The position numbers and the translations under genes were made by a program. A stretch of 64,000 nucleotides of DNA from an uncultured Candidatus Saccharibacteria bacterium. GTDB taxonomy: Bacteria; Patescibacteriota; Minisyncoccia; Phycocordibacterales; UBA9973. The notes under the pieces were generated by a model. The model was given only the letters and a program-made list of their open reading frames with translations, was not told the DNA's origin and did no database searches. Shown here piece after piece: positions 6,028 through 60,507 of the stretch (within the stretch, counting starts at the first letter, position 1; each line of letters opens with the position of its first letter). Location of the stretch: assembly GCA_964625065.1 (NCBI GenBank), contig CAZUZL010000002.1, positions 58,067 through 122,066 of the forward strand. Reading direction: 5' to 3'.

Positions 6028-6045
6028 ATCTAATTTTTAAAAACT

Positions 6046-7110
6046 TTAGCTCATCAATGTAATAATAGTTCCTATTGCTGCAGCAAATATAGACATGATC
6101 CAGTAACGCATGGTTACTGCGGGACGCGACCAGCCTTTGGCTTCAAAATGGTGGTGTATAGGTGCCACAAGGAATATGCGTTTTTTATTAAAATATTTGT
6201 ACGACACCATTTGTGCAAAAGAAGAAAATGCCGTCATAGCCAGTGGAAAACCGATAATTAGAAATGGCAGTACTGCGTCTGTTAGAAATGCAATAACTGA
6301 CAACGTTACAGTTAGCCCCACCATACCTGTTTCGCCCATGTAGAATTTGGCTGGTGGCACATTGAACCATAGAAATACCAGAACAGAGCCACCGACTACT
6401 GCAGAGAACGCTGCCAAGTCTACTTGGTTATGGAAATACGCAATTACAGCATAAGCAAAAAATATTGGTACCATTACCCCACCAGCCAGCCCGTCGATAC
6501 CGTCGATAACTGAAGAAGAAAATATAGCCAACGTCACAGTGATAAAAAATGGTATAAACAACAAGCCCATGTTTAGCTGCCCGTCGAAAGGTATATGTAT
6601 ACCAGTAATACCAAGTTTAAATACAAACCATAAACTAACTAACAAACTAATAAATACTATTAAACCTATTTTAATTCTTCTGTTTGAAATAGCGTCGTTG
6701 GCATAACTACCAGTACCATATATCTGTACCAAGTCGTCGAACAGGCCAAGTATAGAAGAAAATATAAGCACAGCAAACGGTACCAGCGTCTGGTTTCTAG
6801 AAAGGAAGCTAAGTTTGTCTAATGTTACCGAAGGTATAACTAATGACAATATGTATAAACCAAGTATAACAATACTAACAGATGCCCATATAACAATGCC
6901 GCCTACACGTGGTGTAGAAAGTTCGTCTTTTTCATTGTGTAGTTCGCGAAAAGTATTGTTAGTTATGGTTTGGTCGGCAACGTCAGAACGGCTTTTACGT
7001 TTCCACAACCTTTGTTTTATAAACAAACGTATTAGCGGTGGCGTAATAACAAATCCTGTTATAAAGGCTAGTACGACTGGTAATAAAATTTTTACTGCAT
7101 TGGTAACCAT
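6046..7110 (-). CDS. mraY: Phospho-N-acetylmuramoyl-pentapeptide transferase.
   Basis: 354-aa membrane protein with a C-terminal HHHFE motif (VAPIHHHFEAKGW) typical of MraY. Confidence 0.85.
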   Translation of the reverse strand: MVTNAVKILLPVVLAFITGFVITPPLIRLFIKQRLWKRKSRSDVADQTITNNTFRELHNEKDELSTPRVGGIVIWASVSIVILGLYILSLVIPSVTLDKLSFLSRNQTLVPFAVLIFSSILGLFDDLVQIYGTGSYANDAISNRRIKIGLIVFISLLVSLWFVFKLGITGIHIPFDGQLNMGLLFIPFFITVTLAIFSSSVIDGIDGLAGGVMVPIFFAYAVIAYFHNQVDLAAFSAVVGGSVLVFLWFNVPPAKFYMGETGMVGLTVTLSVIAFLTDAVLPFLIIGFPLAMTAFSSFAQMVSYKYFNKKRIFLVAPIHHHFEAKGWSRPAVTMRYWIMSIFAAAIGTIITLMS

Positions 7111-7176
7111 ATATGTTTAGTTGTTAGTTTATAGTGAATAGTTTTTATACTTCGAACAGATTTTAATTTAGACTTT

Positions 7177-7743
7177 TTACGGAAGTTCTTCTGTAACCTG
7201 TAAACTGTCAGCTGTAACCTCTTCTACTATGCCTTGTAATTTAGCTTCTATAGTTTCGCGGTCGGGCAAGTTTTGTACAGAATCTACACCCATATATGTT
7301 AGCAACTGAGCAGTGGGTTCGTATATAAACGAACGGTTGTCTGACGGGTTTGTTTTCTTTTCTATCAGACCACGCATGGTTAGTGTGCGTAATATAAAAC
7401 TGGACTGCACACCGCGGATAAAGTCTATGTCAGGCCGAGATGCATGTTTTTTATAAAGTATAATTGCCAGTGTTTCGAGTGCGGCCTTAGAAAGTTCCTT
7501 TTGGTCAGAATGTTTTTGTTCTGATGCTATAAATTCTGATAGCTGTGGGTCTGTGCCTAACATGTATGTGTCGCCAGCTATAACTAAAACCAATCCACTT
7601 TCTAAAAGGTGGTTTTGTAGTTCTGAAAATACATCTGTAAAACCTTCTACTGATACACCTATAGATTCTGCTAACGAAACCGCCGACTGTGGGTCGTTTT
7701 CGATAAAAAGCAATGTTAGTAGTTTTTGTGCGTTTAAAGTCAT
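7177..7743 (-). CDS. scpB: Segregation and condensation protein B.
   Basis: 188 aa, adjacent downstream of scpA. Winged-helix ScpB-like. Confidence 0.7.
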   Translation of the reverse strand: MTLNAQKLLTLLFIENDPQSAVSLAESIGVSVEGFTDVFSELQNHLLESGLVLVIAGDTYMLGTDPQLSEFIASEQKHSDQKELSKAALETLAIILYKKHASRPDIDFIRGVQSSFILRTLTMRGLIEKKTNPSDNRSFIYEPTAQLLTYMGVDSVQNLPDRETIEAKLQGIVEEVTADSLQVTEELP

Positions 7744-7747
7744 ATAT

Positions 7748-8518
7748 TTACTGGGTTATTATATCATTTATTGTTGTATTTTCCACGGATGGTTTTGTTC
7801 TAGAAAAATGCATGTCGTCGAAAGTGTTATGCTGTACTACAGACAGTATGCCGTTACGCACCATTTCTAATAGTGCCAGGAATGATACTATGGCGTGTAC
7901 TTTTTCTGTTTTAGTTTTAGGTGTACCAGTTAAGTTACGAAAAGACATTGTCATTTCGTTTTGTATACGGTCTGTTAGACTATTCATAACTTCTTCGATA
8001 GACATTATACGTTCTGCCTTTACCTGTGGTAACACTTCTTTTTTCGGCACACTGGCCATAACACCACCTAACAATGCGTGCAGGTTTGCCACAGTTATAC
8101 CAGCGTCGGGTGTAAACACTATTACTTTTTTAATACGGCCACCAGCACCGGGGCGTATGTAGTAGGGCGACTTTAGCATACTACGCACATGTACACTGCC
8201 TTCGCGGGCAGCTTGGTAACGACGTAGTCTGTCTTCTAGGTCTACTATACTTTCTTTTTCTTCTGTAGTTAACGACAAACCTGGTAGTAGTGCTCGGGAT
8301 TTAATAAGTAGCAATGTTGCAGCAACAGACAAAAATGCAGTACTGTCGTCCAGGCTTTGACCGACGTTTTCTGTGGCCATGTTGCGAATGTGGTTTAGGT
8401 AGTCTTCGGTAACGGCGGCTAAAGCTAGTTCATTGATAAAAAGCTTACGTTTTTCGACGAGTTCTAAAAGTATTTCGAGTGGGCCTTCGAACTGACCTGT
8501 ACGAACGGTATATGACAT
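7748..8518 (-). CDS. scpA: Segregation and condensation protein A.
   Basis: 256 aa with ScpA-like N-terminus (FEGPLEILLELVEKRKL). TATAAT lies 6 nt before the ATG. Confidence 0.75.
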   Translation of the reverse strand: MSYTVRTGQFEGPLEILLELVEKRKLFINELALAAVTEDYLNHIRNMATENVGQSLDDSTAFLSVAATLLLIKSRALLPGLSLTTEEKESIVDLEDRLRRYQAAREGSVHVRSMLKSPYYIRPGAGGRIKKVIVFTPDAGITVANLHALLGGVMASVPKKEVLPQVKAERIMSIEEVMNSLTDRIQNEMTMSFRNLTGTPKTKTEKVHAIVSFLALLEMVRNGILSVVQHNTFDDMHFSRTKPSVENTTINDIITQ

Positions 8519-8555
8519 AAGTGTATTATACTGTTTTTAACACTTCCCTGATATG

Positions 8556-8584
8556 TTGACTTTATTCCATTTTGGTGCTATAAT
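8556..8584 (+). promoter_or_regulatory. Sigma70-type promoter with TGn-extended -10.
   Basis: -35 TTGACT at 8556-8561, a 17-nt spacer, then tgcTATAAT at 8579-8584. It drives the 8613 ORF. Confidence 0.6.
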
Positions 8585-8612
8585 ACCAGTAAGCACAAAT
8601 CGCAAATTAAAA

Positions 8613-17097: not shown

Positions 17098-17117
17098 TAA
17101 ATATATAGACCTTGGTG

Positions 17118-17189
17118 TGCGTGTACTTGGAATCGGACCAAGGGCCTCCGTCTTATCAGGACGGCGTTCTACCACTGAACTATACACGC
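17118..17189 (-). tRNA. tRNA-Ile (anticodon GAU).
   Basis: Hand-folded cloverleaf. Acceptor is GCGTGTA/TACACGC, D-arm GTTC-AGTGGTA-GAAC, anticodon stem CCGTC/GACGG with loop CTGATAA, T-arm CTTGG-TCCGATT-CCAAG. The T-loop has an unusual C at position 55. No encoded CCA. Confidence 0.7.
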
Positions 17190-17282: not shown

Positions 17283-18833
17283 TTATTTAGCGCAAAGTTT
17301 TGCATTCATATGGGCTAGAGTTTTTAGGTCTATTTTAGAAGTTTTAACTTCAGCTGAATTTAAACCTATTTCTGTACTGTACATTTTTTTGTAAGCTTTT
17401 ATTGCGTTTAGTGTTCTACTACCTACGAAACCTTGTATGTTTATGTGTGAACCAGTTTCTTGGTTTAGTAGCCACTGTATTGTTTTAACAACTTGTTTTT
17501 TATATAAATCTGTTTTAGTGAAAGCTTTGTAAACTGCAGGGCATGTAGCATTTTTTGTTGGTTTTATAGTAGTGTCATCTGTTTTTACTTTTTCAGCTTC
17601 AACTTTTTTAACTTCTACTGGTGGTATATACGAACCACCGCCACCACCACCACCTGAACTTAATATACCACCACTACTACCCCTAGATATATTACCTAAA
17701 ACTTCTGCTGAATCAGCTGTAAGCAGGTTTTGTTGTGTACCGTTAGCTGGTGTGTATGCTTGTACTATATAGTACGTGTTTGCTGTAACGTTTGGTATTG
17801 TTATTGTTGCACCAGAATTTCTAGCAACTGTACCTTCTAATGTACTGTATGGTCCGCCAGAAGTTGGACTTGAATAAATTTTATACGAACCTACAGATGT
17901 GTATTCAGCGGGTGTCCAACTAACTACCATATCTGTGCCAGAACGTGTTGCAGTTAAACCAGTTGGGGCAATGGTTTGTGTTGCAGACCAGTTTGCAGAA
18001 AACTTTGTGTCTGCAGCTGTGTCCTTCGTTGTAGAACTTGTTTGTAATGAGTTTTCAGCCAATGAACCGGCTGTTAACAAGCCAAACGAACTGAAGTCTG
18101 GTATGTCGCCGGTTAGTGCGTTTTGGTTTGCGTAAAACTCTACCAAACCAGAACTTGCTGACAAAGAAGGTATAGAACCTGTAAGTTGGTTTCTATCAAA
18201 ATATACATATTCTAAAGATGTATTTGTGCTAAGTGAAGGTATAGAACCTGTAAGCTGGTTGTCCCGCACATCAAACAGTGACAGTGATGTGTTTGTAGTA
18301 AGTGCAGGTATAGAACCGGTAAGTTGGTTTGTACCAACGAAAAATTGCGATAAATTTGTATTTGTTGTAAGTGAAGGTATAGAACCTGTAAGTTGGTTGT
18401 TATGTAAATCTAGCAACTGTAGTGCAGTGTTAGATGCCAAAGAAGGTATAGAACCTGAAAGACTGTTACTGTACGCATGAAACTGTGTAAGACTAGTTAA
18501 GTTTGAAATAGAACTAGGTATAGTACCTACAAGGTTGTTACTTGCTAAGCTAATAGTGGCCACATGTGTGCTTGAACGTGTTATACCATGCCATGTGTTT
18601 ATGTCAGAAACAGTGTCCCATGCGGTATGGTCTGTCCATGATGCACCAGCTGTGTCTGTGTACAAATCTTCTAATGCCTGACATTCTGCTTGAGATATGC
18701 CGCCTAGTGTTGTACGGTGTGCACCATTAGTACAGTCAACAGTACTAAATGCAGCATTTGCGTTTTGAATTTTTACTGTAAATAAAACAAAAAATATTAA
18801 AAAAAATGTGGCTGGTATGCGTATATGTTTCAT
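17283..18833 (-). CDS. Secreted multi-domain protein: plant-type leucine-rich repeats, FN3-like domain, poly-Gly linker and C-terminal peptidoglycan-binding-like domain.
   Basis: Signal peptide, then about 8 tandem LRRs (NQLTGSIPSLxTNTxL) encoded by ~66-nt DNA tandem repeats at 18190-18480. GGGGGGGS linker. The C-terminal ~90 aa resemble PG_binding_1 and the C-terminus of the 976-aa protein. Confidence 0.65.
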   Translation of the reverse strand: MKHIRIPATFFLIFFVLFTVKIQNANAAFSTVDCTNGAHRTTLGGISQAECQALEDLYTDTAGASWTDHTAWDTVSDINTWHGITRSSTHVATISLASNNLVGTIPSSISNLTSLTQFHAYSNSLSGSIPSLASNTALQLLDLHNNQLTGSIPSLTTNTNLSQFFVGTNQLTGSIPALTTNTSLSLFDVRDNQLTGSIPSLSTNTSLEYVYFDRNQLTGSIPSLSASSGLVEFYANQNALTGDIPDFSSFGLLTAGSLAENSLQTSSTTKDTAADTKFSANWSATQTIAPTGLTATRSGTDMVVSWTPAEYTSVGSYKIYSSPTSGGPYSTLEGTVARNSGATITIPNVTANTYYIVQAYTPANGTQQNLLTADSAEVLGNISRGSSGGILSSGGGGGGGSYIPPVEVKKVEAEKVKTDDTTIKPTKNATCPAVYKAFTKTDLYKKQVVKTIQWLLNQETGSHINIQGFVGSRTLNAIKAYKKMYSTEIGLNSAEVKTSKIDLKTLAHMNAKLCAK

Positions 18834-20254: not shown

Positions 20255-21658
20255 TTATTCTAAGGTTTGCAACTGGTCTATTGTGGCCTGGGTCTTCTTA
20301 GCTATAGCCATAACCGAGTCGCCATAAAACGCATTTGGTGGCTTACGGCCAGCCTGACATGCTGAACCAGAATAGTATTTACACGCAGCATTACGTTCGT
20401 TAGAATATGCGCCGCCAGCTGCACCGCGGTCTTGTAGGTATAGTGCGGTTGCCATTATGGCGTCTTCAGCGTTCCATGGACTAACAGCACCCTTACCTAG
20501 GGCAACAGCAATACGCGCCTTGTAACCGTTCCATGTTGGTGGAATAAACTGCGAAGGCCCCATGGCACCACCCCAGCCACCACCCGCAATTGGACATGAA
20601 AGTGGCGTACCTTCAGGACTTAGGCCAAGTTCGCCCACTATTTGTAGGTAGTCGTCTTGCCAGTTAGACTTTGCACGACCAGATGCAACTGCTTCAGGAC
20701 CAGGCATAATTACCTTCCAGTTTTTACTTGCTGGGTCGTTAGGGCGGTTACATGTACCTACATTTTTACCTAAACTAGATTCCTGTGTAATAATAGCCAG
20801 TATCATAGCTGGGCGTACACCAGTTTTTACACTAGCTTCCTTGGCATAACGTAGCGCGTCGCCAAATTCAATAGACTTTACGTCGCGAAGCGTAAACAGC
20901 TTACTTAGTATTGCCTGTTTTTGTTTTTGTTTTTCAGCAACAATTTGTTCGTAAGTTTTTTCTTGTGTTTTACTTTCGTTCAGTAAAACTTTTTTCTGAG
21001 ATTCTGTAAGTTCAACTTTTTTCTTTTGTTGTTCTAGTTCAACTTTGGCATCTAGTTGATCTGCCTTGTTGTTCTGTAGTGTTTGTTTTTCTACTTCTGT
21101 GTCAGATTTAACTTCTTTAACAACGTCTACGTGTTCTTTTAAGGAATTCTTTATCTGACTGAACGAATCTACATCATGGTAAAAATCAGAAACAGTTTGG
21201 CCTGAAAGTAATAGATGTATAGGTGTAGTGTTGTCTATTTCGCGTGTTTTGCGTAGTAGGTCTGAAATAGAGTCTTGAGTAGAACTTATTTTTTGACCAA
21301 GGTTGTTTATCTTGTCTTGGCGTTTACCTATTTCGGCTGTTAGTTTGGTTATAACCAGGTTACGGTTTTGTATTTCTAATTTTGCTTTGTTTATCTGGGC
21401 AGTTAGAACACTAATGTCCTTTGTTATAGAACCAGTTTTTTGTTTTTGTTTATTAAGTTCGGCTGTCCATTCGGCTATCTGTTTGTCTATGTCGTTAACT
21501 TCGTTTTGACATTGTTGGCGTTCTTCTGGACTAGAACTAAGTGTTAGGTCGGTTAGACAGTTAAATGCGTATACTGTAGGTGTATTGTAAAAAATACCAC
21601 CGGTACTGGTAACAATTAACATAATTATCATAAACATATGTACTATTTTCCGCATCAA
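20255..21658 (-). CDS. Membrane-anchored lytic murein transglycosylase (MltB-like) with N-terminal coiled coil.
   Basis: 467 aa with an N-terminal TM segment, a long coiled coil, and C-terminal SLT_2-like motifs (ITQESSLGKN, GAMGPSQFIPPTW). Confidence 0.7.
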   Translation of the reverse strand: MMRKIVHMFMIIMLIVTSTGGIFYNTPTVYAFNCLTDLTLSSSPEERQQCQNEVNDIDKQIAEWTAELNKQKQKTGSITKDISVLTAQINKAKLEIQNRNLVITKLTAEIGKRQDKINNLGQKISSTQDSISDLLRKTREIDNTTPIHLLLSGQTVSDFYHDVDSFSQIKNSLKEHVDVVKEVKSDTEVEKQTLQNNKADQLDAKVELEQQKKKVELTESQKKVLLNESKTQEKTYEQIVAEKQKQKQAILSKLFTLRDVKSIEFGDALRYAKEASVKTGVRPAMILAIITQESSLGKNVGTCNRPNDPASKNWKVIMPGPEAVASGRAKSNWQDDYLQIVGELGLSPEGTPLSCPIAGGGWGGAMGPSQFIPPTWNGYKARIAVALGKGAVSPWNAEDAIMATALYLQDRGAAGGAYSNERNAACKYYSGSACQAGRKPPNAFYGDSVMAIAKKTQATIDQLQTLE

Positions 21659-39695: not shown

Positions 39696-39800
39696 CTATA
39701 TTTTTTTTGTCTTTTTTGCAGCTTTTTTAACAGCCTTTTTTGCTGATTTTTTTACTGCTTTCTTTGCAGTCTTTTTAACTGCTTTCTTTTTTGTTGCCAT
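39696..39800 (-). CDS. 34-aa lysine-rich histone H1-like/AlgP-like mini-protein.
   Basis: Hand translation gives MATKKKAVKKTAKKAVKKSAKKAVKKAAKKTKKI. It is below the 60-aa ORF-track cutoff. Confidence 0.4.
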   Translation of the reverse strand: MATKKKAVKKTAKKAVKKSAKKAVKKAAKKTKKI

Positions 39801-40225: not shown

Positions 40226-40261
40226 GGGTTTATTATATAGCATATTTAGATTTAATCAACA

Positions 40262-40345
40262 AAAAACCACCCGAAGGTGGTTTTTTGCGGCTTTCAGGAA
40301 AATCAATTTAAAAATATCTTTTCCTGTTGTGGAGTTTATAACTCA
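40262..40345 (-). ncRNA. Candidate small RNA, or terminator-associated unit, immediately after the PD40 gene stop.
   Basis: Minus-strand promoter has -35 TTGACA (40374-40379), a 16-nt spacer, and -10 TATACT (40352-40357). Downstream are hairpin CAGGAAAA...UUUUCCUG and terminator aaaaaaccaccttcgggtggtttttt (40262-40287). Confidence 0.35.
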
Positions 40346-40383: not shown

Positions 40384-43314
40384 TTATAAATTTTGTTTAT
40401 TGAATTTGTTTATAAACTTAATAGTTTTGGCATTCATTGTACCGTCTGCTTTTAGTTTGTTAGCCTTTTGGTAGTTTATAAGAGCTTTTTTAGTAGCTTT
40501 ACCAAAGTATTTGGTTTCGTACCCTACAGACCCCCACCCTACAGTAGATACTATAAACCCATTTTTATTTAAGAACTTTTGCAATTCCAATACTTCTACA
40601 TTTCTACTGCCTACACGTGTATTTTTTACAAACACAAATGCAGGTAATGGTGCTGAAGTTGTAACAGGAACTTCATTTTGGTTTTTAGGTTGTTCTGTGG
40701 TAGTTATTAATTTGTTTGGAGGTAATTCTGTTAATATACCACCAGCGCTGTTTGAGCTTGTTGTTGGTGTAGTTTCTACTTCAGCAACGGGTAATGTGAC
40801 TATGTAATAGTTTTTAAATGCATTAGGCGACACTGCTTCTGAAACAAATGCAACCTTAGAACCGTCAGGTGACAGTGTTGGATAAAAAGTGCCACCTTCT
40901 GTTGCTTGGCCAGTAAAAAATGTAGGTAATCTGATTATACTGTTATCTAGCATATTTTTAACATACACATCATACGCACCATTTGAACCTAAACTTCCCG
41001 CGTTTGAAGCAAAAGATATGTATTTACCATCTGCAGATATACTTGAGCCACTTACAGAACTATCAGTCTGTGTTCCGTCTGCCGCTACAGAAACAATTGT
41101 TGTAGTGCCGAGTTGCATGTCGCGAACAAATATATCCGGGATATTGTTTAGATCACCATTTACTAAATCTGAAGCGCTAGATTCAAATGTAATATATCGC
41201 CCATCTGGTGACATAATTGGGTAAATAGATTCACCATTAGCAGACGCGGTACCGGCTGAATTTATAGATACTAGTGTAGTAGTTCCTAGAAGCGTGTCGC
41301 GGATAAAAACATCAGATTGACTGTTTGTATCTATATCAGGCACAACATCGTCTATTGGTGCGTCGAAAGCAACATAACGACCATCTTCAGATATTACAGG
41401 GTTATACGATGAAGCTAATATTTCAGTGCCGTCGTTTTTTAATGATACACGCGTAGTTGTGTTTTCTTGTAAATCACGTACAAAAACGTCATATAAACCA
41501 TTTGTGTCCCCTGCGACCAGGTTTGTGGCAGAACTTGTAAATGCTACATAACGTCCATTTGCAGACATGTCTGCAATATATGAATAGTCGTCAGATTCTA
41601 CACCAGCAGTAGACAGTGACACACGTGTGGTTGTACCTAGTTGCATGTCGCGAACAAATACATCTCCTTTATTGTTTGTGTCCCCTGCGACCAGGTTTGT
41701 GGCATCAGAAAGAAATGCTACATACCGCCCGTCGGCAGACATAGAAGGCATATAAGAAATACTGTTACCCTGTACACCTGCAGTAGATACAGAAATACGT
41801 GTAGCTGTGTTTAGTTGTGTGTCGCGAACAAATATGTCAGAAATACCGTTAGTGTCATTATTGACTAAGTTTCCAGAATATGAACTGAATGCAACATACC
41901 TACCGTCTGTAGACATGTTGTTTCTATATTGAGAAAAATCGTCTGGTGAGGAACCAAAAGCAATTGAGGTATAAACATTCGATATATGTGTCGTTGTACC
42001 AGTTTGTGTGTCGTGTATAAACATGTCGTCACTGTCTGGAATAACATCGTTATCAAACAAGTTAGAAGCAACTGAACCAAAAGTTATATAGCGTCCATTT
42101 GGTGATATAGACGGAGTATACGAATCTGAATTGGCTTCTGCGCCACCAGTTACTACAGAAACTCGTGTTGTAGTGTTTAGTTGTGTGTCACGGACAAAAA
42201 CATCTGTAATAACACTGGTGTCGTCTGCAACTAGGTTACTTGCTGTTGATTGAAATGCTATATAGCGCCCATCAGCAGATATAGATGCATATGTAGAATC
42301 AAGGTTACCTTCTACGCCAGCAGTAGAAACAGACACACGAGTTGTTGTGCTAGTTAATGTGTCGCGCATAAACACATCTGTTTTTGCGTTTGTGTCACCC
42401 ACAACTAAATTTGAAGCATCAGAATGAAATACTACATACCGGCCATCTGCAGATATTATTGCAAAATTAGACTGGTTATTAGATTCAGTACCATCAGTTG
42501 CAACTGATACACGTGTTGTAGTGTTTAGTTGTGTGTCGCGCATAAAAATATCTGTATACCCGTTTGTATCGTCAGCAACCAGACCTGTACCTGATGATTC
42601 GAAACTAACATAACGGCCATCAGCAGATATACTGGCACCAACTGCGCCTTCTATTTCTTCATCACCGGCGGTGTTAACTGAAACACGTGATGTAGTGTTT
42701 AGAACAGTGTCGCGAACAAAAACATCAGGGTTACCATTAGTGTCGCCCACAACTAAGTTCGATGCGATTGACTCAAAAGCCACATACCGGCCATCGTCTG
42801 AAATAGACGGTGTCCTTGAGTCACCATTGGCTTCTGTGCCGTCTGCTGCAACTGACACGCGTTTAGTTGTACCTAGTTGGGTGTCGCGTACAAATATGTC
42901 CAAGTTACCTAAAGTGTCGCCGTCGACAAGGTTTGTAGCATACGAATAAAATGCAATGTAACGCCCGTCTGGTGTATAAGCCAAATCTAAAGAATCAGCA
43001 TTACCCATTTCACCAGCACTGTTTACAGAAACTATTTCAGTAGCACCAGTTGCATGGGTATATTTATATATTTGGTAATTATATGGACTAAGCGACGACA
43101 CGCCGTAGAACAATGCGTCGCCGTTATCTAGAACGCCTTTACCACCATCTGAGATTGCTGTTGTGTGCCGTATAGGTACAGTTGCGTCACCTATATCTAT
43201 TTGAACTATATCAGATGTTGCTGCAAATGACTGTGTACCTAAAAAAGGTAATACGCAAACCAAGTATATACCCAGCACTGACATAGTTATGTGTTGTAGT
43301 TTTTTCATATACAA
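40384..43314 (-). CDS. Secreted PD40 (TolB-like) beta-propeller repeat protein with C-terminal peptidoglycan-binding domain.
   Basis: 976 aa with a signal peptide. About 16 repeats of ~44 aa (DGRYVAFxSxASNLVxGDTNGxxDVFVRDTQLNTTTRVSV). The C-terminal ~80 aa are PG_binding_1-like. Confidence 0.7.
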   Translation of the reverse strand: MYMKKLQHITMSVLGIYLVCVLPFLGTQSFAATSDIVQIDIGDATVPIRHTTAISDGGKGVLDNGDALFYGVSSLSPYNYQIYKYTHATGATEIVSVNSAGEMGNADSLDLAYTPDGRYIAFYSYATNLVDGDTLGNLDIFVRDTQLGTTKRVSVAADGTEANGDSRTPSISDDGRYVAFESIASNLVVGDTNGNPDVFVRDTVLNTTSRVSVNTAGDEEIEGAVGASISADGRYVSFESSGTGLVADDTNGYTDIFMRDTQLNTTTRVSVATDGTESNNQSNFAIISADGRYVVFHSDASNLVVGDTNAKTDVFMRDTLTSTTTRVSVSTAGVEGNLDSTYASISADGRYIAFQSTASNLVADDTSVITDVFVRDTQLNTTTRVSVVTGGAEANSDSYTPSISPNGRYITFGSVASNLFDNDVIPDSDDMFIHDTQTGTTTHISNVYTSIAFGSSPDDFSQYRNNMSTDGRYVAFSSYSGNLVNNDTNGISDIFVRDTQLNTATRISVSTAGVQGNSISYMPSMSADGRYVAFLSDATNLVAGDTNNKGDVFVRDMQLGTTTRVSLSTAGVESDDYSYIADMSANGRYVAFTSSATNLVAGDTNGLYDVFVRDLQENTTTRVSLKNDGTEILASSYNPVISEDGRYVAFDAPIDDVVPDIDTNSQSDVFIRDTLLGTTTLVSINSAGTASANGESIYPIMSPDGRYITFESSASDLVNGDLNNIPDIFVRDMQLGTTTIVSVAADGTQTDSSVSGSSISADGKYISFASNAGSLGSNGAYDVYVKNMLDNSIIRLPTFFTGQATEGGTFYPTLSPDGSKVAFVSEAVSPNAFKNYYIVTLPVAEVETTPTTSSNSAGGILTELPPNKLITTTEQPKNQNEVPVTTSAPLPAFVFVKNTRVGSRNVEVLELQKFLNKNGFIVSTVGWGSVGYETKYFGKATKKALINYQKANKLKADGTMNAKTIKFINKFNKQNL

Positions 43315-43362
43315 ATATTATACTACAAATTAAGACAAAATGTAGACTAGAAAAGAGTAAAA

Positions 43363-43388
43363 ACCTTTCCGTTAGGAAAGGTTTTTAC
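43363..43388. terminator. Terminator hairpin after the rnpB 3' end.
   Basis: aaacctttccgttaggaaaggttttt. Confidence 0.6.
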
Positions 43389-43389
43389 A

Positions 43390-43720
43390 TATTCTGTGCT
43401 CGTAAGCCGAATTCTGTTCTAATGGTATTTATCTAGGAATAGTATTACTACTACCCTCAAGCGACTCTTTCCGACTTGCGTCGGAACACGGTCTTGCACA
43501 CGAGTAAGGATTTAGCCGTTTCACCCCTGAAGTTACCATCAGGGCTCACCCACCGATTGCTCGTCGGGTGTCTTTTCCTTTCGGAAAAAGACGTCTCTGC
43601 TCGCACCTCTTAGTTTGTACTAGATGGGTGTTACCCACTACTTGTACTAATTAAATAGTTATGTGTTCGGACTTTCCTCACCCAAACTTACGTTTAGGCG
43701 TAACCACTTCGGCACAGAAC
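43390..43720 (-). ncRNA. rnpB: RNase P RNA.
   Basis: Minus-strand read contains GAGGAAAGUCCGAAC (P4 5' strand) and ACAGAAUUCGGCUUA (P4 3' strand). P1 pairing UUCUGUGC/GCACAGAA. Own promoter TTGTCA-17-tgcTATACT at 43727-43760. Confidence 0.8.
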
Positions 43721-43748: not shown

Positions 43749-43776
43749 TTGACAATAGTAAATAAAGGTGTATAAT
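43749..43776 (+). promoter_or_regulatory. Sigma70-type promoter for the 43806 ORF, divergent from the rnpB promoter.
   Basis: -35 TTGACA (43749-43754), 16 nt, -10 gtgTATAAT (43771-43776). Confidence 0.55.
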
Positions 43777-43805
43777 TTAGTTAACTTAATAACATAGTTT
43801 TTATT

Positions 43806-44093
43806 ATGATAAATATAGCAAATATGGATGAAGCCCGTAAAAATAATATGCTTCAATTGTCTTTACAGATTTTAGGAATAATGATGGTAGAACTCCATTG
43901 GACACCTATTAAAGCAATAGATTATGTTCTAGAAGTATACCAGGACCCGAAGGAGGGAATTATAAACCCCTACCCGATTGAGGAGATCAGGAATTTTTTA
44001 TACATAATTGTAAATGAAAACCCTGAAATAGGTGGCCCAGTTAACGGGGAAAGAAAAGACGTACCAGGACTACTTGAGGTTTTAGAATCTTAA
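43806..44093 (+). CDS. Hypothetical small protein.
   Basis: 95-aa ORF downstream of a strong promoter. Confidence 0.45.
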   Translation: MINIANMDEARKNNMLQLSLQILGIMMVELHWTPIKAIDYVLEVYQDPKEGIINPYPIEEIRNFLYIIVNENPEIGGPVNGERKDVPGLLEVLES

Positions 44094-44186
44094 AGTTTAC
44101 TCGCCCAACCATTGTAAAAACGATGAGCTTACTCAAGCCCATCGTTTTTTTGTTTTTAATCTGTCACCTATAAACTGTAACCTGGT

Positions 44187-52210: not shown

Positions 52211-52509
52211 TGAATAGTACTAAGCCGGAAATTTATTTCCGGCTTTTTTATTTTATACACTATAACGGAATTTAACGGTCGTTAATTTCCGTTACCATTA
52301 CACACAAATAACAAAAACCACCTTTCGGTGGTTTTTGTAGAGGATACAAACTTTCTTTTGTTTCGTTCTGACCGGGACTTTCCCCGGCGTCAACATGGTT
52401 AAGGTCACAACATGCTTGGACCATTATGCACTCGATCGAGCTGCACAATATCGACACCATAAGTGTATATCTGGTTGAATAGATATAAACACGGTTTCAA
52501 ATTGAATTA

Positions 52510-54083
<1,574 letters not shown>

Positions 54084-54394
54084 ATATAAGAGGTAAATTT
54101 TAGTTTATCTCTTCGTAAAAAGAGACAAGATAAAGAATATTATTGTATATGTTGTTTGCACAAAGATGAATATATGTAAGGACCGTTTGACCGGCCTTTT
54201 ACCAGATATTCTACTTTGTTATTGTTTTGTCAAAGTACTTTTTACCTTTAGGGCACAAGGCATTTTAGCTCCCCCTGCCCTCAAAATAAAACCCCTATTC
54301 AAGAGGTAGAGAGTATTCTATACGAAGTAAAATATAAGTCAAGCGGTTAACCTAGACTTATAAATATGGTGTTAAACGCGCTTTCAATTTAAAA

Positions 54395-54435: not shown

Positions 54436-55362
54436 CTAAGAAATCGACTGATCTAAGAGCTTCTTATCCTGTCGCTTCTTCAAACTAACAAGCATTGGTG
54501 ATGCAAAGAAAATTGAAGAGTAAGTTCCAGCGATGACTCCGAAGATGAGAGCGAGTGCGAAATATTTTGTTGAATCTCCTCCAATGAAGAAAATACATAA
54601 GAGTGAGATTAGCGTTGTACACGAAGTGTTTATGGATCGTGACGCAGTCTGCATCAAACTGTCTCCAACAATGGAGTCGAAGTTTTCTTTTCGATCTTTG
54701 TCAGAATACCTCAAGAGATTTTCGCGTATTCGATCAAATACGATAATAGTGTCGTTAATCGAATACCCGAGAATTACAAGAATCGCGACGACAAACAGTG
54801 AATCGACTTCCACTCCGTAGAAATGACCAAGGAATGAAAAGACTCCGACAGGAATCAGTATGTCGTGAACGAGTGTTGCGATAGCTACAAACCCATATTT
54901 CCACGAAGAAACTGGGCGGGACACGTGCCTAAAAGCGTACGCAATGAACAATGTGATAAGTAATACCACAGCGATGAAGGAGAAGATAGCCTTTTTCTGA
55001 AGCTCATTTCCGAGTGTTGGTCCAATCGTATTAAATTTCTTCTCAGAAACTTTGCCGACTGTTGCAAGAGCAGTCATAAGCGCATTCTTTTGAACTTCTT
55101 CAATTGTTTTTGATCTCAAAGTAAAACCCATATCCCCTGTCTCGCGAATTGAATAATCACCAAGATCGATATTCTGGGAAAGAACTGTAGTTTCAACTAG
55201 CTGCTTTTCAGGACGATTACCCTCGAATGCAAATTCAAGAACTGAGCCACCAGTGAAATCAACTCCAAATTTAACCCCCCAAGTTGCCAAGAAAATAATC
55301 GATAGGCCGAGCAAGACACCAGACAGCGCATAAAATATTTTTCGTTTATTGATGATCCACAT
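54436..55362 (-). CDS. secF: Protein translocase subunit SecF.
   Basis: 308-aa membrane protein adjacent to secD with the SecF TM pattern. Confidence 0.8.
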   Translation of the reverse strand: MWIINKRKIFYALSGVLLGLSIIFLATWGVKFGVDFTGGSVLEFAFEGNRPEKQLVETTVLSQNIDLGDYSIRETGDMGFTLRSKTIEEVQKNALMTALATVGKVSEKKFNTIGPTLGNELQKKAIFSFIAVVLLITLFIAYAFRHVSRPVSSWKYGFVAIATLVHDILIPVGVFSFLGHFYGVEVDSLFVVAILVILGYSINDTIIVFDRIRENLLRYSDKDRKENFDSIVGDSLMQTASRSINTSCTTLISLLCIFFIGGDSTKYFALALIFGVIAGTYSSIFFASPMLVSLKKRQDKKLLDQSIS

Positions 55363-55365
55363 ATA

Positions 55366-56712
55366 TTATTTCTTAGCGAATAAAACTTGTAATTTTGAGC
55401 CGACTTTTTTGGTGCTGATTGCAAGCAACAACCATTTCGAAATCACTATCGCGGTAAACATACTCACGATGACACCAAGGGCAAACACGAGTGAGAAACC
55501 TTTGACAAGTGATGAGCCGGACATCCAGAACAAAATCACCGCGGAAATAAGGCTTGATAGGTTACCATCACGGATCGAAGACCACGCGCGTCGAGTACTT
55601 TCGCTGACAGCTTCGAAGACTGAAAGACCCAGGCGCAATTCTTCTTTTAATCGAGCAAAAATCAAAATATTCGCATCAACCGCCATACCGAGTGACAAGA
55701 CAAATCCTGCGAGACCAGCGGATGTCAAAATCACCGGAATGAACTTAAAGAGTGCGAGCATAATTACCACGTACATCATGAGAGAAATCGAAGCAATCAC
55801 ACCCGGTAATCGATACAACAAAATCATAAAAATAAAGATGAATGCAAGAGACCACGTAAGTGCCTTGACCCCTTTGTCCAATGTATTCTGACCAAGTGAT
55901 GCTCCGATTGACTCAGTTTCAAGTAATTTGATTGGTAAAGGTAACGCACCAAAATTCAAATTTTGAACAAGTTTTTTTGCTTCTGCCGGAGAAAAGTCCC
56001 CAGTAATTTGGGCCGTACCAGCAGTAATTTCATCACGGATAACGGGAGAAGAAATTGGTGTTCCGTCGAGGAAAATCGCCATAATACGACCAACATTATC
56101 CTTGGTTAATTTCGAGAGAAGTTCCTTGCCCTCTGTATTAAATTCAATCGAAACAATTGGTTGGCGGCTATAGTTATCAAAAACCAAGCTTGCGCGCTTC
56201 ATCTGTGCCCCAGTAAGTCCAGTTGGGATATACATTTTCGATTGCACTTCAGCAATCTGTTCAGGAGTTGATGTTGCAGTAACTGAATCGAGTACAGCAG
56301 TATCATTTGTCAGGATTTTAAATTCCAAAAGTGGCGTCTGACCAATCATGCGAATCGCTTCATTCACATCAGTCACACCTGGCAATTCCACAGTTAGACG
56401 ATTTTCTGACGCATCATCTCCGAGAAATCCAGATTTTTCAACTTGAATAATTGGCTCTGAAACACCCAAAATATTCACGCGCTTTTCGATAGTCTGACGC
56501 AAAGCATCCATAGCACCGTCGATATCTTTTTCCTCTACAGCCCTCGTATCCGCACCATATGTTAAATGTGTTCCGCCATCCAAGTCCAAACCGAGCTTAA
56601 ATTTAAAAGCTGAATTTGGATTAACTTCACTTGAATAAACAAACCACGCTATTAAAACACCGCCAATTAATAATGCCAAAGCTACTAATCTTGTTTTCAA
56701 CATATTTCGCAA
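55366..56712 (-). CDS. secD: Protein translocase subunit SecD.
   Basis: 448 aa with a large periplasmic domain and C-terminal TM bundle. Confidence 0.8.
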   Translation of the reverse strand: MRNMLKTRLVALALLIGGVLIAWFVYSSEVNPNSAFKFKLGLDLDGGTHLTYGADTRAVEEKDIDGAMDALRQTIEKRVNILGVSEPIIQVEKSGFLGDDASENRLTVELPGVTDVNEAIRMIGQTPLLEFKILTNDTAVLDSVTATSTPEQIAEVQSKMYIPTGLTGAQMKRASLVFDNYSRQPIVSIEFNTEGKELLSKLTKDNVGRIMAIFLDGTPISSPVIRDEITAGTAQITGDFSPAEAKKLVQNLNFGALPLPIKLLETESIGASLGQNTLDKGVKALTWSLAFIFIFMILLYRLPGVIASISLMMYVVIMLALFKFIPVILTSAGLAGFVLSLGMAVDANILIFARLKEELRLGLSVFEAVSESTRRAWSSIRDGNLSSLISAVILFWMSGSSLVKGFSLVFALGVIVSMFTAIVISKWLLLAISTKKVGSKLQVLFAKK

Positions 56713-56768
56713 TTATACGAGCGTTTTGAGGTAAAATCCAGATGACAATATCAATATTTTGTGTTGTT

Positions 56769-58082
56769 TTAACGACCACTTCGTAGAATAATTGTCCGGG
56801 CGGTCTTTAAGAAAATCTCAAAATCCAAGAAAAGTGACCGATTTTTAACATAAAATAAATCATACGCGAGCTTATTTTTTGTCTCTATAACATCTAATTC
56901 GTGATGTGGGTGATTTTCATGATAAATTTGTGCCCAACCAGAAAGTCCCGGTTTGATCAAATGACGAATATTGTAATATGGAATCTGTGCATTATACGAT
57001 GCAACCATGTCGACTTTTTCAGGACGAGGTCCAATGAGTGACAAATCCCCCCGTATCACATTCCAAATTTGCGGCAATTCGTCGATGCGGGTTTTGCGCA
57101 GAAAATTTCCTACCGATGTTACCTTATCATCTGCCATAGATCGAAACTTATAAATTTTAATCTTTTTGTTATCTTTTCCAATTCTTTCTTGAGTAAAAAA
57201 GATCGATCCACCGTCCTGCATTTTGATAGCGAGACACACAAAAGGATAGAAAATGAGTGAGACAAGCCCAATCGCAAGTCCAATCATTACATCAACCACG
57301 CGTTTAATCCCATCGTACATCATATGAGTATCAGTAGTAATATGTCTCAAAAACCATCCATGACCAACAATGGAAATCGGGATCTTTGCAAATACCTGTT
57401 CATACACTGTATGCATATCAACAAAACGAACTTTTGAAAACATTAAATTGTAGAACCGATTGAGAAGTGGTTGGATTTTGACATTTTCTGAATCAATCAC
57501 CACATTTTTGATATCTTCGGAGTAAATGAAAGCGACGATTTCGTCTTGTAAATTGAGCGAATCAACTTTATCCAGATTAATGTAGTTTGTGAAATAAAAA
57601 CCGTATTTACCACGATTCACCTCATTCTTTAATTCAATCATCTCTTCCCCATGTGCGATAAGAAGAGATTTTTCGCGCTCACCGCGATAAAAAAGCGGTC
57701 GAACAAAAATTCTCCAGCCTGCAAGTAAACCAAGCGAAACAATCAGGTAAATAAACAACGTAATTTTAGGTGTAATCGAAAAAGCCGGAATGAAATAGAA
57801 AAAGACAATCGCAAGAACAATATTCACAATTTGCGTAGTAACGAGGAGTTTTGGTAGATGTCTTTTGGCAACTACATTAAAACGGTCATAGAGGCCTGCG
57901 ACATAGAAAATCGCTATCCAAGCCAAAAATAGTATAGAAAATGGTTGAATGTGACCAATAAGCCCACCCAAGTCTGGTAACTCGATATGACGAACCAGCA
58001 AGGTAATCCAAATAGAAACATAAAGCACAAATAGGTCTCCACACAACAGAATCAGGGGTTCTTTTTTGTTGACTATATTCAT
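56769..58082 (-). CDS. Polyprenyl-phosphate sugar phosphotransferase (WbaP/bacterial sugar transferase family).
   Basis: C-terminal sugar-transferase domain with DELPQIWNVIRGDLSLIGPRPE. The ORF-track start 58139 overlaps the divergent GT4 gene, so I chose the internal Met at 58082 (MNIVNKK). Confidence 0.7.
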   Translation of the reverse strand: MNIVNKKEPLILLCGDLFVLYVSIWITLLVRHIELPDLGGLIGHIQPFSILFLAWIAIFYVAGLYDRFNVVAKRHLPKLLVTTQIVNIVLAIVFFYFIPAFSITPKITLFIYLIVSLGLLAGWRIFVRPLFYRGEREKSLLIAHGEEMIELKNEVNRGKYGFYFTNYINLDKVDSLNLQDEIVAFIYSEDIKNVVIDSENVKIQPLLNRFYNLMFSKVRFVDMHTVYEQVFAKIPISIVGHGWFLRHITTDTHMMYDGIKRVVDVMIGLAIGLVSLIFYPFVCLAIKMQDGGSIFFTQERIGKDNKKIKIYKFRSMADDKVTSVGNFLRKTRIDELPQIWNVIRGDLSLIGPRPEKVDMVASYNAQIPYYNIRHLIKPGLSGWAQIYHENHPHHELDVIETKNKLAYDLFYVKNRSLFLDFEIFLKTARTIILRSGR

Positions 58083-58116
58083 ATTGCTATAATATAGATA
58101 TACTATACTAAATTCA

Positions 58117-59148
58117 ATGAAAACTCTATACGTAATCACAAAATCAAATTGGGGTGGTGCTCAGAAATATGTGTACGACCAAGCTGCGATGCGAGCCAGA
58201 TATCCTGATGCAAAAGTAGCGGTGCTTGCTGGAGGTAACGGTGAATTATGTGATCGTCTCGAAAAAATAGGTGTACCAGTTTATCACATACCAAACTTGG
58301 AAAGGGATATTAACATCTTCAAGGAATTTTCTGTTTTCGCTACACTACTCAAAACATATCGCAGCACGAAACCAAACATTATCCATTTAAATAGTTCCAA
58401 AATTGGAGCAATCGGGGCTTTAGCTGGTCGACTTCATAACCTTTTTTCAAAACAAAAAGCTAAAATAATCTTTACTGCGCACGGATGGGCTTTCAATGAA
58501 GATCGTAATCCAATTAGCAAATTTATAATTACAGTAATTTCATATTTCACTATCTTGATGTGTCACGAAGTTATTGTGCTATCTAATTTTGAACGCGATC
58601 AAGTATCTCGATGGCGGGGGTGCTCAAGAAAGATTCGTGTGGAAAAACTGCGAATCGCACCGATTGATTTCTCCATTACATCCGATGCACGAAATATTCT
58701 CACCAGCAAGCTCCCCGCTCTGCGCGAACATATCAATAAAAGATGGGTTGGAACAATAGCCGAACTTCACAAAAACAAAGGTCTCGGGTTCGGCATCGAG
58801 GCAATCAGAAATATTCGTGATCAAAATTTCGTCTGGGTGATTATTGGAGAGGGTGAAGCGCGCACAATACTCCAACGTGAAATTCTGAAGTACAATCTAC
58901 AAAATAAAATATTTCTAGTTGGATACGTATCGGATGCATCAAAATTACTCGGGGCTTTTGACATGTTTCTCCTCCCTTCTATCAAAGAGGGATTGCCATA
59001 TGTTTTATTAGAAGCAGAGCAAGCAAAATTACCGATAATCGCAACTGAGGTCGGCGGAATTCCGGAATATTTTAACAAAACTCCAAATATAATCGTGCCC
59101 CCAAGAGATCCCCAATCTCTATCCAATGCTATTTTAAAAATGATATAA
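58117..59148 (+). CDS. Group 1 (GT4) glycosyltransferase.
   Basis: 343 aa with the EX7E-type region EGLPYVLLEAEQAKLPIIATEVGGIPE. Confidence 0.7.
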   Translation: MKTLYVITKSNWGGAQKYVYDQAAMRARYPDAKVAVLAGGNGELCDRLEKIGVPVYHIPNLERDINIFKEFSVFATLLKTYRSTKPNIIHLNSSKIGAIGALAGRLHNLFSKQKAKIIFTAHGWAFNEDRNPISKFIITVISYFTILMCHEVIVLSNFERDQVSRWRGCSRKIRVEKLRIAPIDFSITSDARNILTSKLPALREHINKRWVGTIAELHKNKGLGFGIEAIRNIRDQNFVWVIIGEGEARTILQREILKYNLQNKIFLVGYVSDASKLLGAFDMFLLPSIKEGLPYVLLEAEQAKLPIIATEVGGIPEYFNKTPNIIVPPRDPQSLSNAILKMI

Positions 59149-59156
59149 TATTTTTC

Positions 59157-59684
59157 ATGTCTAATACCAACAAAAAATATGGTTTCACCCTCATTGAACT
59201 ACTCGTAGTTGTCTCCATTATCGCATTACTTTCAAGTGTCATTTTGGGCGCACTCCAGGACGCACGCGTAAAAGCACGGGATCGCGCGCTCTTTTCGGGA
59301 GTTTTAGAATTACAAAAAGCAGTCGAGTTATATAAGTTAAAGTATGGGGTGTACCCGCAAAGATCCGATGGACAAGCAAACGTAAATATTACTCGAGATT
59401 CGGATGGGGCATATTCATCAAATAATGATGTCCAGCGCGACTACATACTACCTCAAATTAGAGAATTTATTCCAGATATGCCTCAACCAACTGCTGTTGG
59501 TGGTTTTGTTTCATTTTATCATAGTCCTAGCTTCACTTGTACTGACAACCTAACAGCGCCATACATGATCCTATTCACACCTGAAAATATGAGTTCATTT
59601 TCAAACCTACCGAGTGGTCGCAGAACTACTACCACAGGAGCGATCTCTTTTGCTAGTTATGCTAAGTGTCTCTCTGGCAAATAA
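59157..59684 (+). CDS. Type IV pilin-like protein (prepilin N-terminal methylation domain).
   Basis: MSNTNKKYG|FTLIELLVVVSIIALL, a class III signal with G-1/F+1/E+5. TATAAT lies 7 nt before the ATG. Confidence 0.7.
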   Translation: MSNTNKKYGFTLIELLVVVSIIALLSSVILGALQDARVKARDRALFSGVLELQKAVELYKLKYGVYPQRSDGQANVNITRDSDGAYSSNNDVQRDYILPQIREFIPDMPQPTAVGGFVSFYHSPSFTCTDNLTAPYMILFTPENMSSFSNLPSGRRTTTTGAISFASYAKCLSGK

Positions 59685-59729
59685 AAGATGGTTGGCCTCA
59701 TCCGCTAATCATATGATATAATTTAAAAC

Positions 59730-59984
59730 ATGAGCGATATACAATTCGAGGATTCAAATTATCGGGTGCAAAGTTACTCAACAAATTCCAACACTGGCCT
59801 CACTAGCTGGTTGGTTAGAAAAGGTTTGGTCAAAAACGAAGCTGCGGCAGAAATATTCCTTCTTATTATGGCAATTATATTCTTCATTCTTGCAGCCATG
59901 ATGTTTTTCAATGACAACAAAAGTATCATACCGATCGGAGATATCGACACAGAATTATTAGATGCAGAAGCTAACAATATATAA
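59730..59984 (+). CDS. Small membrane protein between the two pilin genes.
   Basis: 84 aa with one TM helix. TATAAT lies 7 nt before the ATG. Confidence 0.45.
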   Translation: MSDIQFEDSNYRVQSYSTNSNTGLTSWLVRKGLVKNEAAAEIFLLIMAIIFFILAAMMFFNDNKSIIPIGDIDTELLDAEANNI

Positions 59985-59988
59985 TTAC

Positions 59989-60489
59989 ATGAGAGGCAAC
60001 ACATCCAAACAAGGTTTTACTTTAATCGAACTTCTAGTTGTAGTTTCTATCATCTCACTCTTATCCATCGTCATTCTCGGTGCTCTGAATGATGCACGAG
60101 CAAAGGCACGGGATCGAGCACTATTTTCTGGAGTTTTGGAGTTACAAAAAGCGGTAGAGTCATATAAGTTGAAGTATGGGGTGTATCCAGCAGGAGGTAC
60201 TTACGCTTCCTACATAGCGAGAAATTATCTTGGTACATATTCTGGTGCTCCTGGTTACGCAACAGTCCTGACAAACATACAGGAATTTATCCCAAACATA
60301 CCCCAACCAACCACGGGATCTGTAGGATTTTACACTCAATCCAATATAAAATGTGTCGGTCAAGAAAATGCCCCTTATGCAATTTCTTTTACACCAGAAA
60401 ATTTATCTACTTTTGCACATCTACCCTTCTACAACAACTCAAATAACGCAGCACCGTCAACTACAGTAAAATGTGTAACGAGCGAATAA
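59989..60489 (+). CDS. Type IV pilin-like protein, paralogue of the 59157 gene.
   Basis: MRGNTSKQG|FTLIELLVVVSIISLL. The start moved to internal Met 59989 because TATAAT sits immediately upstream. Shares LFSGVLELQKAVE(L/S)YKLKYGVYP with the first pilin. Confidence 0.7.
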   Translation: MRGNTSKQGFTLIELLVVVSIISLLSIVILGALNDARAKARDRALFSGVLELQKAVESYKLKYGVYPAGGTYASYIARNYLGTYSGAPGYATVLTNIQEFIPNIPQPTTGSVGFYTQSNIKCVGQENAPYAISFTPENLSTFAHLPFYNNSNNAAPSTTVKCVTSE

Positions 60490-60507
60490 GTCTGATATCT
60501 CTACCGA

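Follow-up and report, generated by a model that had tools for sequence, protein, structure and literature searches.

Non-covalently wall-anchored surface proteins of Gram-positive bacteria, such as Listeria InlB (LRR joined to GW), the CWB2 family with the SlpA cassette of C. difficile, and the SLH proteins, combine a conserved anchor with interchangeable, strain-variable exposed domains. The gene described here would follow a similar logic, although the GW, CWB2 and SLH anchor folds are unrelated to its PG_binding_1 anchor and the organism is an ultra-small Patescibacterium. The gene occupies positions 40384..43308 on the minus strand of a 64,000-nucleotide stretch of DNA from an uncultured Candidatus Saccharibacteria bacterium (GenBank assembly GCA_964625065.1, contig CAZUZL010000002.1, forward-strand positions 58,067 to 122,066; hereafter the window), and encodes a protein of 974 aa plus a stop codon, in which an array of PD40 repeats precedes a C-terminal PG_binding_1 domain. 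The propeller part of this gene is a mosaic, hypervariable cassette, unlike the anchor or the neighbouring genes. Taken together, our results make it reasonably probable that the product is an exported, wall-anchored double-propeller surface protein with an exchangeable, recombining propeller cassette. A second window gene, at 17283..18833 on the minus strand, encodes a 516-aa LRR/FN3-like surface protein that would share the same design, with a different and remotely related PG_binding_1 subtype.

Among Patescibacteria, PD40 arrays listed under COG0823 (named ‘Tol biopolymer transport system component’), such as P0022, P0050 and P0071, have a signal peptide, a 58-aa unit (SxDGRYVAFxSxAxNLVxGDTNGxxDVFVRD...) and a PG_binding_1 tail as in the window protein. 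However, proteins of this type are uncharacterised, only 40-43% identical to the window protein, contain 11-19 units and carry other anchor subtypes, which are Cys-bracketed in P0022 and P0050. TolB resembles the window protein in its PD40 blades and its extracytoplasmic position next to peptidoglycan, but has an N-terminal alpha/beta domain, a single six-bladed propeller and no PG_binding_1 domain, and its partner in diderms is Pal. Tricorn protease (1k32) also has tandem PD40-type propellers; in contrast to the window protein, which is 12% identical in sequence and has neither PDZ nor catalytic domains, it is cytoplasmic. The three-helix PG_binding_1 domain itself occurs in cell-wall enzymes (SleB 6tci/4fet, CtpB 4c2c, endolysins 7rum/3bkh/5nm7, and C. 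difficile 5tv7), where it targets an enzyme to the wall, whereas in the window proteins it bears non-catalytic, putative binding scaffolds. The domain architecture is of an ordinary, known kind, and the new point is the strain-level behaviour of the cassette. A literature search returned no paper on PD40 in Patescibacteria nor, by title or abstract, on such a protein.

The PD40 family (PF07676) matched the protein in eight stretches with 129.4 bits, against a Pfam gathering threshold (GA) of 20.9 (E=3e-38), which upholds the family assignment made in an initial annotation of the window. That annotation had described a giant protein with about 16 near-identical blades of about 44 aa. We found instead 13 clear units that recur every 58 aa (174 nt), anchored on a DGRY motif, and one further, degenerate blade N-terminal to them. 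Nor are the units near-identical: the canonical ones share 55-77% of their amino acids and 58-72% of their nucleotides, the longest exact common word is 30 nt, and Tandem Repeats Finder (TRF) reported a single 174-nt pair at 75%. A protein of 976 aa, the length given in the list of open reading frames (ORFs), is not giant. Unit 6 measures 64 aa and holds the inter-propeller junction, and two other units are shortened. From the N-terminus onward, the degenerate blade covers aa 30-109 (42982..43221, minus strand as for all parts of this gene), propeller 1 with canonical units 1-6 covers aa 110-466 (41911..42981), and propeller 2 with units 7-13 covers aa 467-838 (40795..41910) and is the part most divergent among alleles. 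A Thr/Pro-rich disordered linker (aa 839-892; 40633..40794) leads to the C-terminal PG_binding_1 domain (aa 893-974; 40387..40632).

AlphaFold2 (AF2), supplied with a 50-sequence alignment, modelled the protein with a mean predicted local distance difference test score (pLDDT) of 80 and values above 90 in the blades, each unit having four strands. The strands fall into two blocks, aa 34-449 (strands of the degenerate blade at aa 34-92) and aa 471-838, with a low-confidence junction between them, and are followed by the linker (aa 843-903, pLDDT <50) and a helical C-terminal domain. The best PDB matches found by Foldseek were the tandem propellers of tricorn (1k32, the top match, E=5.7e-21), Aip1 (1nr0, two seven-bladed propellers), GH74 and TolB. 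The two predicted strand blocks and the tandem propellers among these matches agree with the beta-propeller proposed in the initial annotation. PDB sequence searches with the whole protein or its 50-sequence profile gave no match.

These resemblances bear on a housekeeping role, in which the protein would be an envelope or peptide-handling factor, either a TolB-like wall organiser or a propeller that gates the substrates of a separate peptidase (tricorn, DPP/S9). Tricorn heads the Foldseek matches, precomputed Pfam matches to Tricorn_N and Tricorn_2nd are graded ‘faint’, and weak profile matches were obtained to Dpp5 (E=6.7e-18), to TolB (NCBIfam NF002183, E=2e-6) and, below GA, to DPPIV_N. 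However, the scores lie far under the respective cut-offs (64.6 bits versus 900 for Dpp5 and 27 versus 405 for TolB), no N-terminal TolB domain, protease or PDZ domain was found in the protein, and no Pal-like or peptidase gene adjoins it. No catalytic family was matched in the Pfam and NCBIfam profile scans. We rejected both a TolB identity, given the score and the absence of the N-terminal domain and of a Pal neighbour, and a tricorn or S9/DPP peptidase identity, given the absence of a peptidase domain and the low Dpp5 and DPPIV_N scores. Strain-level hypervariation of the propellers (see below) further speaks against a conserved interaction, and altogether we consider a housekeeping role improbable.

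The PG_binding_1 end reported in the initial annotation was recovered at aa 906-967 of the whole protein (40.9 bits versus a GA of 23, E=2.4e-10), and the tail alone scored 46 bits. It is a standard PG_binding_1 domain that differs from those of the wall enzymes by an 8-residue insertion in the loop between helix 1 and helix 2. Its profile matched SleB 6tci (E=8.7e-4), endolysin 7rum and CtpB 4c2c in the PDB.

To describe the variation of the gene we compared four alleles: the window, P0002, P0003 and P0004, the last encoded at 6001-8598 of the Nomurabacteria contig L001. The gene order FN3 protein, DUF192, ribonucleotide reductase (RNR), RNase P RNA, PD40 gene is kept in the relatives. The flanks of L001 are 94-95.5% identical to the window at the nucleotide level, and the encoded proteins share 99.2% (RNR), 96.9% (FN3 protein) and 91% (DUF192) of their amino acids, but the PD40 protein only 67%. 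In an identity profile of 100-nt steps against this contig, values of 93-100% at 43503-43304 drop to 52-86% across the propellers and recover from about 40730 onward (86%, 92%, 97%). Among the alleles, the PG_binding_1 domain is 91-95% identical and the degenerate N-terminal blade 77-92%.

The four alleles are mosaics. P0002 and P0003 are 88-98% identical in units 4-11 and 75-79% in units 1-3, while the window and P0002 are 83-93% identical in units 1-6 and 53-67% in units 8-13. Unit likeness does not always follow position: unit 8 of the window is most like unit 4 in P0002 and P0003, and unit 2 of P0004 comes almost as close to window unit 9, which suggests conversion or unit replacement. P0004 has 11 units rather than 13, with an exact in-register gap of two units (116 aa). 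Recombinational length variation had been predicted for both the PD40 and the LRR gene; a difference in length was found in the former, while the LRR gene has seven units both in the window and in its relative P0121. Slippage driven by near-identical repeats was rejected as an explanation, with repeat units at no more than 75% nucleotide identity.

Nei-Gojobori estimates between the window and L001 gave synonymous (dS) and nonsynonymous (dN) divergences of 0.13-0.19 and 0.005-0.039 for the flanking genes, 0.23 and 0.021 for the PG-binding domain (95% amino acid identity), and 0.35 and 0.111 for the linker. For the signal peptide, N-terminal blade and propellers, dS rises to 0.93-1.41 and dN to 0.14-0.28, with dN/dS of about 0.14-0.21. 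The synonymous divergence of the propellers is 5-8 times that of their own anchor and of the neighbouring genes. Pervasive positive selection is not supported at these dN/dS values in the propellers. The raised dS is better explained by alleles that are old or imported, or by gene conversion, than by rapid point substitution.

The same data allow us to weigh whether the hypervariability could be an artefact of strain-chimeric assembly or paralogue confusion, or a result of mutagenesis by a diversity-generating retroelement; we hold this to be very improbable. Every sequence compared comes from metagenome assemblies, the contigs of the relatives stop at or near the PD40 gene, and the gene is internally repetitive. 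However, independent assemblies yielded two of the alleles in identical form: contig L005 matches the window at 100% across 3265 nt, and P0002 was obtained in assemblies of two separate runs. The conserved synteny indicates a single orthologous locus, and collapse is unlikely for blades with at most 75% nucleotide identity and exact words of no more than 30 nt. A search of the rest of the 64-kb window, which included neither a reverse-transcriptase scan nor an adenine-specific analysis, found no further copy of any stretch of the gene that could be a retroelement template or another PD40 gene, and the divergence affects synonymous sites across the whole propeller. Scans of metagenome contigs by peptide patterns and by a degenerate 32-nt anchor pattern returned no relatives.

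In the reading that we favour, the PD40 protein, which belongs to a Candidatus Nomurabacteria-like bacterium and carries no catalytic domain, would be exported by the Sec pathway and its signal peptide cleaved. The C-terminal PG_binding_1 domain would then hold it non-covalently on peptidoglycan, and the disordered Thr/Pro stalk of about 55 aa would bear the two tandem PD40 propellers outward, where they may form an adhesin-like or receptor-like platform that binds the surface of a partner or host, or another ligand. Conserved arms for recombination would flank the propeller-coding cassette, namely the promoter and signal peptide at its 5' end and the end of the linker and the anchor at its 3' end, and the cassette would diversify via allelic or segmental recombination as well as in-register gain and loss of blades.

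The data show the domain content, the predicted fold, the homology of the anchor, the synteny, the mosaic divergence and the indel of two blades; that the protein is exported, anchored to the wall, exposed at the surface and engaged in binding, and that selection causes its variation, is inferred. Several points weigh against this reading. The signal peptide was called by reading the sequence, and the PG_binding_1 domain has a pLDDT of 35-57 in the full-length AF2 model. The two propellers probably have 7+7 blades, a figure that was derived from unit and strand counts and not from coordinates, and loss of two blades would leave propeller 1 of P0004 with five, because the unit at the inter-propeller junction is conserved. 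The ratio dN/dS is below 1 in all regions and positive selection is without support; the high dS of the propellers could result in part from gene conversion among diverged blades; and the metagenomic origin of all four alleles counts here as well.

A conserved anchor with a variable exposed part would also suit a major lattice-forming protein of the envelope, whether the surface-layer (S-layer) protein or another, comparable to the S-layer cassettes of Gram-positive bacteria. The monocistronic appearance of the gene, its near-consensus -10 element and its strong terminator hairpin agree with such a function. There is also precedent in a preprint, which reports that Patescibacteria have S-layer proteins and that the one described in Dehalococcoides is a beta-propeller (10.1101/2024.05.28.596244). 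However, none of the S-layer families was matched by the protein in the profile scans, and thousands of homologous PD40 arrays from many phyla bear very different tails (dockerin, cadherin, Ig, SLH), which fits a general binding scaffold better; we therefore consider a lattice-forming role unlikely.

A more far-reaching proposal is that, in this Nomurabacteria lineage, the double propeller is the main determinant of attachment to a partner or host, or an S-layer, or a surface target of phages, and that co-existing strains exchange whole segments of it through homologous recombination, with the conserved ends (signal peptide and PG anchor) as arms. We put this forward tentatively and regard it as doubtful. 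If true, an uncultivated episymbiont would owe its host range or its susceptibility to phages to a specificity cassette at this locus. In Patescibacteria, partner-cell recognition and attachment have been linked to few surface proteins, and a wall-anchored double propeller is a concrete candidate. Should its variation follow the specificity for host or phage, this locus would provide a useful marker and an experimental handle.

The LRR/FN3-like protein (17283..18833, minus strand) begins with a putative signal peptide, MKHIRIPATFFLIFFVLFTVKIQNANA/A, and contains seven LRR units of 23 aa (69 nt) of the type NxLTGSIPSL (18078..18563, minus strand), an FN3-like domain at aa 289-361 (17751..17969, minus strand) and a divergent, Cys-bracketed PG_binding_1-like C-terminal module at aa 421-516 (17286..17573, minus strand). 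The LRR part of its previous assignment stood, with LRR_4 at 49.8 bits (GA 27, E=3e-13) and LRR_1 at 39.5 bits (GA 20.6), while fn3 (PF00041) remained just under threshold (22.3 bits versus 25, E=1.6e-4). The near-identical LRR units of about 66 nt formerly placed at 18190-18480 proved to be the seven 69-nt units given above, about 72% alike by TRF, with pairwise nucleotide identities of 35-75% and a longest common word of 26 nt. The relative P0121, which likewise has seven units, is 96% identical, and the protein is not hypervariable. An exact look-up found no identical entry on record.

Several minor observations concern this gene. The ‘NxLTGSIP’ units resemble the plant-specific type of LRR, and a Cys-containing cap reminiscent of LRRNT_2 (CTNG...ECQALEDLY...W..HTAWD...W.G; aa ~28-90, window 18564-18750) precedes them. 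A tRNA-Ile(GAT) gene lies just downstream (17117-17189, minus strand), and a SLT_2 lytic transglycosylase is encoded two genes upstream, beyond prfA (20255-21658, minus strand).

The initial annotation proposed that both proteins end in one homologous module of about 90 aa, a common anchor combined with different scaffolds. Profile searches with PF07676, PF01471 and the LRR models supported the PD40 array, the PD40 tail and the LRR units, but the LRR tail reached only 14.7 bits against PG_binding_1 (GA 23, E=0.035), over profile positions 4-41. A phmmer search with the LRR tail against 1.84 billion proteins returned 37 matches at E<=1e-3, 32 of them in proteins carrying PF01471, and these alignments cover the canonical PG_binding_1 helices (V..lQ.LLN...DG.fG..T..AvkaFQ). 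A custom profile was built from 92 other PG_binding_1 instances, which were drawn from proteins picked by similarity to the LRR tail; among the 260 ORFs in the six frames of the window it matched that tail at E=6e-11, the PD40 tail at E=4e-7 and no other, the next-best ORF being at E=2.3. AF2 predicted three helices for the LRR tail (pLDDT 72), and the top seven Foldseek matches were all PG_binding_1 domains, with a root-mean-square deviation of 2.3-3.2 Å and non-significant E-values of 0.8-7. The LRR-tail profile gave no match among PDB sequences, and a word-indexed search with this tail gave none either. The PD40 tail is linked to the wall-enzyme domains by sequence profile and the LRR tail by predicted fold; the latter differs from them in having no DG motifs and two bracketing cysteines.

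Direct similarity between the two tails was not significant (BLASTP E=0.38; hhalign probability 1% over 10 columns), and phmmer searches with either tail against the window ORFs returned only its own protein. One module common to both window proteins was rejected on these results. By profile and predicted fold, both proteins end in PG_binding_1-type domains of remote subtypes, the LRR type being bracketed by two cysteines, and we infer that both domains bind peptidoglycan. In each protein a disordered linker precedes this end and a putative signal peptide is present. Altogether, the observations of the initial annotation were partly confirmed and its interpretation was partly supported: the shared superfamily held, while a single shared module did not.

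A side observation concerns the boundary between scaffold and linker. The motif S-x-GGIL-[ST] was found at this boundary in both proteins and in no other of the 260 window ORFs, as SNSAGGILT at aa ~857-865 of the PD40 protein (~40714-40740) and as GSSGGILSS at aa ~385-393 of the LRR protein (~17655-17681). SNSAGGILT is unchanged in all four PD40 alleles, although the remaining linker varies. The motif was defined after the fact, and by a rough estimate about one match is expected by chance.

Within each subtype, the proposal of one anchor on several scaffolds is borne out. Tails of the LRR type, with 55% identity, were found on P0123, which combines an NHL six-bladed propeller with Big_13, and on P0122, a Thr/Ser/Gly-rich, beta-helix-like protein without Pfam match. 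This PG_binding_1 subtype, missed by Pfam, is a tail of LRR, NHL-propeller and beta-helix-like proteins, and its recognition improves the annotation of surface proteins in the Candidate Phyla Radiation (CPR, Patescibacteria). For the PD40 type, a word-indexed search with the tail gave one match, the 108-aa protein P0158 from the Minisyncoccia contig L002, with 68% identity. At 2540-2660 of that contig, P0158 follows, in the same frame and after a single TAA, an FN3/SASA/GDSL ORF that spans 855 aa or more and is cut by the contig end; the TAA could have arisen by nonsense mutation or sequencing error, or be a site of read-through.

The extent of the PD40 gene agrees with the initial annotation apart from its start. 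The listed ORF (40384-43314, minus strand, 976 aa) is present and begins at a TTG at 43314, which is an unlikely start; the ATG at 43308 is the likely one, favoured because the putative signal peptide MKKLQHITMSVLGIYLVCVLPFLGTQSFA/ATSD follows it and because the orthologue P0004 opens in the same way (MKKLQH). This signal peptide would comprise aa 1-29 (43222..43308, minus strand), and AF2 placed a helix at aa 2-22. Neither a lipobox nor an LPXTG motif was seen when the protein sequence was read. A promoter-like site, TCTACA-18-TATAAT, was identified by consensus match only at 43317..43346 (minus strand), and its near-consensus -10 box (43322-43317) ends 8 nt before the ATG. No Shine-Dalgarno sequence was seen ahead of this codon (43306-43346), and therefore the mRNA may be leaderless. 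A terminator-like hairpin read from the sequence, AAAAAACCACC-TTCG-GGTGGTTTTTT, lies about 100 nt past the stop codon (40261..40286, minus strand), and the gene appears monocistronic.

Among the genomes representing GTDB species, the nearest to the window is a Candidatus Nomurabacteria assembly. The neighbours of the PD40 gene are housekeeping genes, including those for SecA, DnaE, class II RNR and RNase P RNA (43387-43720). The RNase P RNA, of the bacterial class A (105.3 bits versus a gathering score of 100), is encoded on the minus strand immediately upstream of the PD40 gene, and a 14-bp hairpin comes after it at 43357-43388. Identity to L001 is only 57% in one internal segment of this RNA (43504-43603) but 100% over the 100 nt that come next. 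L001 lacks a stretch of about 400 nt (~43750-44150) that separates the RNase P RNA from the RNR gene in the window; a 95-aa ORF without Pfam match is located in the same interval of the window (43806-44093, plus strand). The 713-nt gap that separates the PD40 gene from secA contains a 34-aa Lys/Ala-rich ORF, MATKKKAVKKTAKKAVKKSAKKAVKKAAKKTKKI (39696-39800, minus strand), which has a histone-H1/Hc1-like look and likewise no Pfam match. Farther away, rRNA features were found at 52500-54087, 62743-62849 and 62981-64000, all on the minus strand. The 16S gene is separated by about 8.6 kb from the 5S gene and the 3' end of the 23S gene, with protein-length ORFs in between (54436-62389), and the rRNA operon is therefore unlinked.

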